Shown here piece by piece: positions 15,001-18,000 of a stretch of 64,000 nt of DNA. Position numbers: made by a program. The stretch lies in assembly GCF_013167455.1 (NCBI RefSeq), contig NZ_CP038328.1, one strand, 5' to 3'. Origin of the DNA: Escherichia coli O157:H7. GTDB taxonomy: Bacteria; Pseudomonadota; Gammaproteobacteria; Enterobacterales; Enterobacteriaceae. Positions within the stretch are counted from its first letter, which is position 1. Each line of letters begins with the position of its first letter.

Positions 15001-18000
15001 CAGAGACGGACTCGGACGTAAAAAGGTGTTTTGCCATATTTAATATCACCTAAAGAGAATTTGGTTAGCTCAAACTGTTGTGTGGATTTTCTGTGGTAGC
15101 GGATCCTACCACGACTCTGCAGGTTAAAAACACTGGCAGTCTGAGTGTTAATCGGTATGGATGGATTAACATCTGGATGGCTATTTTAGGTCAATTCTTC
15201 ACCCGATTTCCACTTTTTTTTGAATCGTGTCTCATTCTGTTAAAAACGTGGCTGGAAATTTTTCCTGACAATGCCGGCATTCTGCGTATTTATCTTTTGC
15301 AATTTTCTGCCATTGTGGGGTATAAAACGCGGCGCGCGGCTTAAATAAAAAGCACACGACGTTTCTTTCGTGTTGCCACTTCCAGCCGGGTTGAAATCAG
15401 AGTTTTGGCTTGTGGGTTCGTCTTAACAGGCGGCCGTGGAGGTGATACGAAATAATGAACCGTTGTCTGCTGCTTAACCTGTCTCACCGTTCTGGTGAAG
15501 ATTCGTTCCCCGCACTCTGCATCTCTGCTTTGCATACCTGCCGATGTTATACCCATCTCGGCGCTTCTCAGGATTCAAGAGCTGGTTACAGTTACTGAGG
15601 ACTGAACAAGGGCGCTCTTGTAAAAACAAGAGTTTTCTCGTGGTTTCGCCGAACTGTCACACTTACGTTCGGTTATGTGCTTAATAATGTTATGAAAAAG
15701 AAACCGGTTGCGCAGTTGGAGCGTCAGCATTCACTGCTGGAAAATCCATGTGCTTATGGGTTGTTATCGCAGTTCCAGGCTGCGATAGTCGTTAACTGTT
15801 TTACACTTAATAAAATAATTTGAGGTTCGCTATGTCTGACGACATGTCTATGGGTTTGCCTTCGTCAGCGGGCGAACACGGTGTACTACGCTCCATGCAG
15901 GAGGTTGCAATGAGCTCCCAGGAAGCCAGCAAGATGCTGCGTACTTACAATATTGCCTGGTGGGGCAATAACTACTATGACGTTAACGAGCTGGGCCACA
16001 TCAGCGTGTGCCCGGACCCGGACGTCCCGGAAGCTCGCGTCGATCTCGCGCAGTTAGTGAAAACTCGTGAAGCACAGGGTCAGCGTCTGCCTGCACTGTT
16101 CTGTTTCCCACAGATCCTGCAGCACCGTTTGCGTTCCATTAACGCCGCGTTCAAACGTGCGCGGGAATCCTACGGCTATAACGGCGATTACTTCCTTGTT
16201 TATCCGATCAAAGTTAACCAGCACCGTCGCGTGATTGAGTCCCTGATTCATTCGGGCGAACCGCTGGGTCTGGAAGCCGGTTCCAAAGCCGAGTTGATGG
16301 CAGTGCTGGCACATGCTGGCATGACCCGTAGCGTCATCGTCTGCAATGGTTATAAAGACCGCGAATATATCCGCCTGGCATTAATTGGCGAGAAGATGGG
16401 GCACAAGGTCTATCTGGTCATTGAGAAGATGTCAGAAATCGCCATTGTGCTGGATGAAGCAGAACGTCTGAATGTCGTTCCTCGTCTGGGCGTGCGTGCA
16501 CGTCTGGCTTCGCAGGGCTCCGGTAAATGGCAGTCCTCCGGCGGGGAAAAATCGAAGTTCGGCCTGGCGGCGACTCAGGTACTGCAACTGGTTGAAACCC
16601 TACGTGAAGCCGGGCGTCTCGACAGCCTGCAACTACTGCACTTCCACCTCGGTTCGCAGATGGCGAATATTCGCGATATCGCGACAGGCGTTCGTGAATC
16701 CGCGCGTTTCTATGTTGAGCTGCACAAGCTGGGCGTCAATATTCAGTGCTTCGACGTCGGCGGCGGTCTGGGCGTGGATTATGAAGGTACTCGTTCGCAG
16801 TCCGACTGTTCGGTGAACTACGGCCTCAATGAATATGCCAACAACATCATCTGGGCGATTGGTGATGCGTGTGAAGAAAACGGTCTGCCGCATCCGACGG
16901 TAATCACCGAATCGGGTCGTGCAGTGACTGCGCATCACACCGTGCTGGTGTCTAATATCATCGGCGTGGAACGTAACGAATACACGGTGCCGACCGCGCC
17001 TGCAGAAGATGCGCCGCGCGCGCTGCAAAGCATGTGGGAAACCTGGCAGGAGATGCACGAACCGGGAACTCGCCGTTCTCTGCGTGAATGGTTACACGAC
17101 AGTCAGATGGATCTGCACGACATTCATATCGGCTACTCTTCCGGCACCTTTAGCCTGCAAGAACGTGCATGGGCTGAGCAGCTTTATTTGAGCATGTGCC
17201 ATGAAGTGCAAAAGCAGCTGGATCCGCAAAACCGTGCTCATCGTCCGATTATCGACGAGCTGCAGGAACGTATGGCGGACAAAATGTACGTCAACTTCTC
17301 GCTGTTCCAGTCGATGCCGGATGCGTGGGGGATCGACCAGTTGTTCCCGGTTCTGCCGCTGGAAGGGCTGGATCAAGTGCCGGAACGCCGCGCTGTGCTG
17401 CTGGATATTACCTGTGACTCTGACGGTGCTATCGACCACTATATCGATGGTGATGGTATTGCCACGACAATGCCTATGCCGGAGTACGATCCAGAGAATC
17501 CGCCGATGCTCGGTTTCTTTATGGTCGGCGCATATCAGGAGATCCTCGGCAACATGCACAACCTGTTCGGTGATACCGAAGCGGTTGACGTGTTCGTCTT
17601 CCCTGACGGTAGTGTAGAAGTGGAACTGTCTGACGAAGGCGATACCGTGGCGGACATGCTGCAATATGTACAGCTCGATCCGAAAACGCTGTTAACTCAG
17701 TTCCGTGATCAAGTGAAGAAAACCGATCTTGATGCTGAACTGCAACAACAGTTCCTTGAAGAGTTCGAGGCAGGTTTGTACGGTTATACCTATCTTGAAG
17801 ATGAATAATTAAGATTATTCTGCTGGCGGGTCGATTTATTTACGTAAATCGGTCCGCTTTCTTTTTATATATTCTTAAAAATAATTTAGCTGCTTTTCTT
17901 ATTAAATAATCTCCCTACAATCGCTGCATTAATTAAATGCAGAGGGAACGGTTATGAAAAAATGGAAAGTACGCAGCGCGTTGGTGGCATTAATCGTGCT

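Follow-up and report, generated by a model that had tools for sequence, protein, structure and literature searches.

The 43-codon yqgB frame before speA in Escherichia coli O157:H7 as a probable cis-acting leader open reading frame

Introduction

This study concerns the junction between the small gene yqgB and speA in a 64,000-nucleotide (nt) stretch of Escherichia coli O157:H7 DNA (contig NZ_CP038328.1). The whole stretch is referred to as the window, and all positions are window positions unless stated otherwise. Through speA, cells enter the arginine route to putrescine. Putrescine reportedly represses speA-lacZ fusions, a result attributed to Moore and Boyle in 1991, and the mechanism of polyamine repression is unsettled. 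The acid phenotype of yqgB is said to originate with Hobbs et al. in 2010. An original prediction, made from the window sequence alone, held that yqgB ends immediately upstream of speA and that this arrangement would allow translational coupling or control of arginine decarboxylase synthesis by an upstream open reading frame (uORF). The literature already contains the gene, its location and the proposal of a uORF, and yqgB-speA has been listed among candidate uORF-regulated pairs (Adams et al., 2021; PMC7815308). What is new here is the conservation of the stop in two registers, the near-neutral peptide, the in-frame insertions, the hairpin at the speA start codon and the argument that the deletion phenotypes arise in cis. 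It is proposed below that yqgB is probably in the main a cis-acting leader open reading frame (ORF), which provides coupling and anti-Rho cover for speA, rather than the gene of a working protein.

Arrangement of yqgB and speA

The features at the junction are as follows.

15692-15823, plus strand: yqgB, a 43-codon leader ORF with ATG at 15692-15694 and TGA at 15821-15823, without a Shine-Dalgarno (SD) sequence
15821-15825, plus strand: overlap of the yqgB TGA (15821-15823) with the speA SD GAGG (15822-15825), read directly from the sequence
15832-17808, plus strand: speA, encoding biosynthetic arginine decarboxylase (658 residues), with its first start codon, AUG1, at 15832
15837-15839, plus strand: a second conserved TGA, in ATGTCTGA, out of the yqgB frame in the window and the uORF stop in 28 of 79 compared sequences

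Direct reading of the sequence, with a matching translation, confirmed that the 43-codon yqgB ends 8 nt before the speA ATG, the gap being GGTTCGCT at 15824-15831. The speA SD reads TGAGG, and the yqgB stop forms its first three bases. A GTG at 15677 in the yqgB frame yields a 48-residue version of the same ORF in the ORF listing. The same 43-codon yqgB is annotated by RefSeq before speA in the identical O157:H7 record and in K-12, and the RefSeq gene order, in one orientation, is yqgD, yqgG, yqgB (named 'acid stress response protein YqgB') and speA. The surrounding 851 bases show 100% identity to E. coli O157:H7 and other E. coli chromosomes and have a match in 5425 of 5426 complete E. coli genomes. 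The translated ORF matches the Pfam family PF11036 ('YqgB, virulence promoting factor') over positions 1-43 of 43 with an E value of 4e-33 and 113.3 bits, the cut-off being 24.

In a single sequence, the odds against such an ORF are mild. When the 498-nt leader was shuffled with its dinucleotides preserved and scored for an ATG-initiated ORF of at least 43 codons ending within the last 15 nt, 100 of 5000 shuffles (2%) contained one. The arrangement stands above chance because it is conserved among relatives, not through single-sequence odds.

Conservation of the open frame and its stop

The comparison was anchored on SpeA. From about 445 speA relatives, 80 were taken, one per species, within the Enterobacteriaceae and with 93-100% SpeA identity. 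Every fetched locus with sufficient upstream sequence, together with the window, gave the 79 sequences used below. A homologous ORF beginning M[KN]KKPVAQ is open in all 79. It varies from 38 to 91 codons in 11 length classes, and in every sequence the frame is first closed by one of two TGAs: that at -11 relative to speA, within TGAGG (51/79), or that at +5, within ATGTCTGA (28/79). On a neighbour-joining tree of speA, the register must have switched 13 times or more and the length must have changed 19 times or more. Near relatives can have T runs before TGAGG whose lengths differ by a single base (L018 and L021 versus L020 and L023). The sequence TGAGGTTCGC.ATG is almost without variation across the compared speA leaders. 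Among the 58 distinct sequences, no in-frame stop was observed where column composition predicts 9.2, and none of 2000 column shuffles kept every sequence open; of the two remaining frames, one is closed in all 58 and one in 41.

Several genera carry insertions at one point within this frame.

15794-15808, plus strand: conserved unpaired motif AACTGTTTTACACTT, the entry point of hairpin insertions in several genera

The insertions are 21-129 nt long, form hairpins, have inverted ends (TATACCC...GGGTATA) and lie exactly between TGTTTTA and CACTT, about -20 to -150 from the speA ATG. They occur in Kosakonia, Atlantibacter and some Enterobacter; the loci with such insertions are L013, L027, L029, L032, L036, L041, L063, L066, L069, L072 and L087. 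The uORF reads through them in frame and without a stop. They may represent a small mobile element or one resembling repetitive extragenic palindromic (REP) sequences.

These data bear on the possibility that the open frame is incidental, with the structures or binding sites of the leader RNA alone being functional and yqgB translation inconsequential. Conservation at the nucleotide level and the several covarying helices described below would suit such a leader, as would a yqgB start that lacks an SD and was not detected by Ribo-RET in vivo. An incidental frame is nevertheless hard to reconcile with 79 open sequences out of 79, with inserted hairpins of up to 129 nt that bring no in-frame stop, and with repeated 1-nt shifts that always reach one of the two TGAs. 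The start is moreover used in vitro, and validation of the tagged protein has been reported. An incidental frame is regarded as very unlikely.

One further argument, that the uORF is never in frame with speA, was weakened on inspection, as the AT-rich tail of the E. coli ORF has stops in the other frames anyway. A protein search with YqgB returned Escherichia and Shigella entries only, and this search is uninformative on breadth because the ORF is rarely annotated elsewhere. As a separate observation, most genera have two copies of the 9-mer TGTTTTACA, one immediately ahead of the yqgB start codon (15674-15691) and one inside the yqgB 3' end (15794-15808). E. coli has lost the first copy, and both copies lie outside the predicted helices.

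Beyond the Enterobacteriaceae, eight loci were reached via fragmentary SpeA proteins. Several of them have a frameshifted speA or metK and one (L085) was unusable, so that they are taken as weak evidence. The order metK, leader, speA is retained in all of these distant loci. An ORF ends at the +5 TGA in Dickeya (L083), L087, L088 and L090. Locus L086 instead has a 22-codon ORF (locus position about 1436-1504), which begins ATGTCTTCACTGACA and ends in ATGA on the speA start, and its SpeA begins at the short-form methionine. Judged from its sequence, this ORF may be what is left of the N-terminal extension of SpeA after it became a separate coupled ORF.

Structure of the speA start region

RNA structures were predicted from pair counts and RNAalifold on an alignment (A1) of 67 distinct sequences. 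Four regions around yqgB and the speA starts are relevant.

15642-15705, plus strand: structures around the yqgB start, comprising hairpin H2 (15649-15654 with 15667-15672) and a helix of GGUUUC (15642-15647) with GAAACC (15700-15705)
15759-15797, plus strand: hairpin H3 inside yqgB, in which GGUUGUUAUCG and CGAUAGU.GU form an invariant base below a variable apex
15825-15877, plus strand: hairpin H4, 15825-15840 paired with 15864-15877 in 14 pairs
15891-15912, plus strand: internal speA start, ATG 15910 (SpeA-70), with SD AGGAGG at 15899-15904 and a CUCC/GGAG hairpin (15891-15894 with 15900-15903)

H4 is the structure that bears most directly on speA initiation. It is predicted to bury AUG1 and speA codons 2-3 together with the spacer and the final base of the SD. 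Its E. coli form has a folding energy of -21.2 kcal/mol (z -2.2), and it is 99% paired across the 67 sequences, with changes that are one-sided and wobble-compatible only. H4 is also predicted in Cedecea, Shimwellia and Dickeya (modified form), and it was not predicted in three distant loci (L084, L088 and L090).

Two start sites have been described for speA, AUG1 and Met-26/27, which give rise to the isoforms SpeA-74 and SpeA-70, respectively (Meydan et al., 2019). SpeA-74, made from AUG1, is said to be periplasmic. The SD of the internal start (AGGAGG) is stronger than that of AUG1, and the small conserved CUCC/GGAG hairpin could, on the structural model, mask it. Raised conservation at synonymous sites has been reported at the speA starts (Meydan et al., 2019). 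The suppressed synonymous variation found here at the speA 5' end agrees with that observation: for codons of invariant residues, the third-position entropy is 0.43 in speA codons 1-30 and 0.86 gene-wide (permutation p 4.5e-4).

Upstream, H2 has three pairs with compensatory changes, and a helix in the 5' half of yqgB likewise has three compensatory pairs. The long-range GGUUUC/GAAACC helix, which involves yqgB codons 3-5, encloses the yqgB AUG and is 99.5% paired; because it is invariant, it is untestable by covariation. H3 folds in E. coli at -14.4 kcal/mol (z -2.8), and its apex covaries. A candidate internal promoter at this place (GGGTTGTTATCG ... GCGATAGT; TTGTTA as -35, GATAGT as -10) was rejected, since the -10 is unconserved and the blocks pair as a hairpin with a covarying apex. 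A tool-flagged promoter, TTAACT-16-AATAAT at 15792-19, was also rejected, the candidate -10 regions not being conserved.

Evolution of the YqgB peptide

If yqgB encoded a working protein, its residues would be expected to be under selection. By pairwise Nei-Gojobori comparison, the nonsynonymous (dN) and synonymous (dS) divergences of yqgB are 0.263 and 0.306, a dN/dS of 0.86; codons 31-230 of speA in the same genomes have a dN of 0.046, a dS of 0.927 and a dN/dS of 0.05. The mean entropies of yqgB at codon positions 1, 2 and 3 are 0.562, 0.578 and 0.566. From these substitution patterns, the YqgB peptide appears to evolve almost neutrally, and purifying selection on its residues, as the functional-protein name implies, was not found. 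Because the peptide is nearly unconstrained, it is translation through to speA that selection would be keeping.

Two stretches seem to be exceptions. The blocks YGLLS (GGG TTG TTA TCG) and AIVVNCFT are invariant at synonymous sites as well, and the variable blocks differ at first, second and third codon positions alike. The apparent conservation of 'YGLLS' and 'AIVV' is attributed to the H3 RNA, which keeps the third codon positions invariant. The C-terminus of YqgB is unrelated between genera, reading LNKII, STQFEVRYV or carrying inserts of 17-48 residues. Among annotated proteins, a biased sample, the E. coli and Shigella variants of YqgB (P0005, P0007, P0008 and P0002) include a frameshift with a restoring frameshift, a six-codon deletion and a deletion in the leader by which the start of yqgG is joined to the yqgB region. 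The C-terminal frame and stop are retained in all four.

The pattern is difficult to square with the view that YqgB acts in trans as a real small protein (the 'acid stress response protein' of its name), its proximity to speA being operon packing and coupling only setting stoichiometry. That view can draw on the RefSeq and Pfam names and on the literature, which lists YqgB among acid-stress small proteins. Tagged YqgB has been detected and is named an experimentally validated small protein (cited in PMC7815308). A 2026 paper found yqgB deletion mutants to be sensitive to acid and colistin and reported that purified YqgB binds ranitidine in surface plasmon resonance (SPR) measurements (PMC13159126). 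A trans-acting protein is opposed, on the other hand, by the dN/dS of 0.86 with equally variable codon positions, by conserved 'motifs' whose synonymous sites are invariant and which coincide with RNA helices, by C-termini that differ wholly between genera and by the tolerance of compensated-frameshift variants. In a ribosome-arrest screen, YqgB overexpression induced heat-shock proteins of the aggregation type and not an arrest-like response.

The deletion phenotypes themselves point in the same direction. In Salmonella, deletion of yqgB was shown to lower speA and speB mRNA, arginine decarboxylase and spermidine, and the colistin phenotype was reversed by arginine, putrescine or spermidine (PMC13159126). 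The phenotypes follow speA/speB expression and polyamines, and no trans-complementation of the deletion is described in that paper. Considered with the sequence data, this suggests that the yqgB deletion phenotypes are polar effects on speA. A trans-acting YqgB protein is judged unlikely.

The leader transcript and Rho

The junction lies at the end of a long leader, whose other features are listed here.

15297-15326, plus strand: probable speA leader promoter, TTGCAA (15297-15302), an 18-nt spacer and TATAAA (15321-15326), inside the yqgD 3' end
15334-15831, plus strand: speA 5' leader, about 498 nt, within the yqgG-yqgB-speAB transcript (Adams 2021 cloning primers)
15455-15598, plus strand: yqgG, the first leader ORF, 47 codons (RefSeq; Pfam PF23505, E 3e-38)
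15614-15640, plus strand: hairpin T1 (15614-15621 paired with 15626-15633) with the U-rich tract UUUUCUC, found by a terminator scan
15889, plus strand: Rho-dependent RNA 3' end (MG1655 3085854, speA +57), just 3' of H4, with a score of 3.09 and the label 'uORF' (PMC7815308)

Both promoter hexamers are strongly conserved across the 79 sequences and lie 7-8 nt upstream of the 5' end of the speA 5' untranslated region (UTR) clone of Adams et al. (2021), whose primer GCGCGGCTTAAATAAAAAGC corresponds to 15334 onward. Nucleotide conservation spans the entire leader. An Rfam search of 15000-16100 gave zero matches at E up to 1. The northern legend of the preprint names a 'yqgG-yqgB-speAB transcript' (Adams et al., 2021).

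Rho has been connected to this leader experimentally. The speA 5' UTR (15334-15831) was cloned, and both the fusion and the northern bands were increased in rhoR66S (Adams et al., 2021; PMC7815308). In addition to the 3' end at 15889, supplementary file 2 of that study lists a Rho termination region at MG1655 3086055, which corresponds to 15688, 4 nt before the yqgB ATG (score 3.69, p 8.7e-20). The yqgB start codon was detected in vitro by INRI-seq.

The first leader ORF, yqgG, has a strong and invariant SD (GGAGGTGA at 15438-15445) and is found in nearly all 79 leaders. A C-terminal block of 16 residues is conserved; the dN/dS is 0.70, and the entropies at the three codon positions are equal. 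YqgG tagged with the sequential peptide affinity (SPA) tag has been detected, and the antisense YqgC has not (Weaver et al., 2019). A C-rich, G-poor stretch inside yqgG (about 15460-15580; GC skew -0.29 to -0.32) is the sole clear one in the leader, and on base composition it is a likely Rho loading (rut) site. Between yqgG and yqgB, T1 has compensatory changes at all eight of its pairs in the 67 sequences. It looks like an intrinsic terminator by sequence, and the Adams 2021 supplementary tables contain no RNA 3' end near its U tract (MG1655 3086103) under the conditions of that study.

Two neighbouring ORFs can be noted. The yqgD ORF as annotated (15093-15344) is without a Pfam match at E up to 0.01. 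On the other side of speA, the interval up to speB holds a 243-residue lipoprotein ORF (MKKWKVRSALVALIVLLAGC...) at 17954-18685, also without a Pfam match. Of 5426 complete E. coli genomes, 3557 carry this ORF; K-12 does not, and 137 bp separate speA from speB there.

A cis-acting model for yqgB

The stop position, the evolution of the peptide, the start hairpin and the published data all lend support to the second part of the original prediction, that speA is subject to coupling or uORF control. The reading favoured here, and considered fairly probable, is that yqgB acts in cis on speA. In this model, yqgB would be the second of two conserved leader ORFs on the yqgG-yqgB-speAB mRNA. Ribosomes on yqgB would run into the speA initiation region and terminate at the TGA at -11 or, in other genera, at +5. 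At either position a ribosome would sit on the 5' arm of H4 or span it and would melt that hairpin, which would free AUG1, so that the terminating ribosome re-initiates or a new 30S subunit starts SpeA-74. The same ribosomes would cover the RNA from the rut-like part of yqgG to speA and limit Rho termination at 15688 and 15889. Coupling would feed the long isoform from AUG1 specifically, and the internal start, with its own strong SD, would be independent. Translation of yqgB would be needed both for the use of AUG1 and for protection from Rho, and the deletion phenotypes would be cis effects on speA. The cis model would explain why deletion of yqgB lowers speA and speB and why polyamines rescue the mutant.

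Several observations weigh against coupling in cis. Some concern initiation: Ribo-RET detected speA AUG1 in vivo and did not detect the yqgB start, so at least some use of AUG1 would not depend on yqgB initiation at a detectable level, and translation of yqgB may be too low to contribute much SpeA. Others concern H4, which shows no compensatory double changes and has 9 of 14 pairs that never vary; the z-score of its fold is modest for E. coli and non-significant for other species. The distant loci L084 and L089 carry an in-frame TAG at -58 in a frame that is otherwise continuous, and an assembly error is indistinguishable from a true loss. The arrangement is, by this evidence, not universal outside the Enterobacteriaceae. 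The detection of tagged YqgB and the SPR binding of ranitidine, given above, also count on this side. Finally, a stop inside the SD could equally block speA initiation.

This last point leads to a different role for yqgB, that of a repressive or ligand-sensing uORF. Ribosomes on the SD would then block speA, or stalling in response to polyamines, arginine or agmatine would set the access of Rho. The stop inside the speA SD, Rho termination in the leader and the reported repression of speA-lacZ fusions by putrescine are compatible with such control, and other polyamine genes have uORFs of this kind (SpeFL-speF and MdtU-mdtJI; compare TnaC). Several observations count against such a uORF. The last 4-10 residues of YqgB vary, with the stop-proximal residues unconserved, and between 5 and about 50 codons separate the AIVVNCFTL block from the stop, unlike the spacing in known arrest peptides. 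An arrest peptide was rejected as the principal explanation on these two grounds, the variable C-terminus and its variable spacing. YqgB also falls in the aggregation cluster of the arrest screen and not in the arrest-like one, and deletion of yqgB lowers speA rather than raising it, although the deletion also removes RNA elements. A repressive or sensing uORF is held to be improbable.

The cis-acting reading can be carried one step further. The leader as a whole might form a two-uORF (yqgG and yqgB) Rho attenuator, in which a signal acting through uORF translation sets the amount of SpeA and the ratio of SpeA-74 to SpeA-70. The signal may be polyamines, arginine or agmatine, or acid. This extension is speculative and is put forward only tentatively. 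If it is true, the YqgB protein would be functionless, and what has been ascribed to it, both the acid and colistin phenotypes and the claim of a drug target, would come down to effects on speA.

Significance and comparison with known systems

A cis-acting yqgB, if true, would provide a testable anatomy for speA, made up of two uORFs, a rut-like region, a start hairpin and two starts. The substitution pattern brings into question both the 'acid stress response protein' label and the 2026 proposal of YqgB as a drug target (PMC13159126). The approach can be applied generally: leader ORFs that pose as small proteins are flagged by a frame that is kept open and ends at a fixed place, with a peptide that evolves neutrally.

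On the favoured reading, the arrangement would combine classical coupling through a structured start with a uORF-dependent Rho attenuator of the mdtU-mdtJI type. Coupling by termination beside a structured start is known from trpE-trpD, rplJ-rplL and the MS2 coat-lysis and replicase genes, and from 70S re-initiation. As in these classical cases, yqgB and speA share an mRNA, the yqgB stop lies near or overlaps the speA start (a TGA in the SD or in ATGTCTGA), and the speA start is predicted to be hidden in a hairpin that the upstream ribosome would have to open. Unlike in the classical cases, the upstream partner is a 43-codon, near-neutral leader ORF instead of a second functional protein, and the coupling is inferred.

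By sequence, the window ORF is a full-length member of PF11036. It departs from the functional protein implied by the family and RefSeq names in its dN/dS of 0.86, its variable tail and the lack of support for selection on the peptide. The system speFL/orf34-speF resembles yqgB-speA in having a leader ORF before a polyamine-biosynthetic decarboxylase and in the involvement of Rho. It differs in that its leader peptide is an ornithine-sensing arrest peptide, to which yqgB has no sequence similarity and whose fixed-distance arrest motif it lacks. MdtU, the uORF peptide of mdtU-mdtJI (Adams et al., 2021), differs from YqgB in its conserved C-terminus and its demonstrated spermidine response; the C-terminus of YqgB is variable, and yqgG precedes it. 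In both leaders a Rho-dependent RNA 3' end lies beyond a validated small ORF within a long 5' UTR, and both are connected to polyamines.

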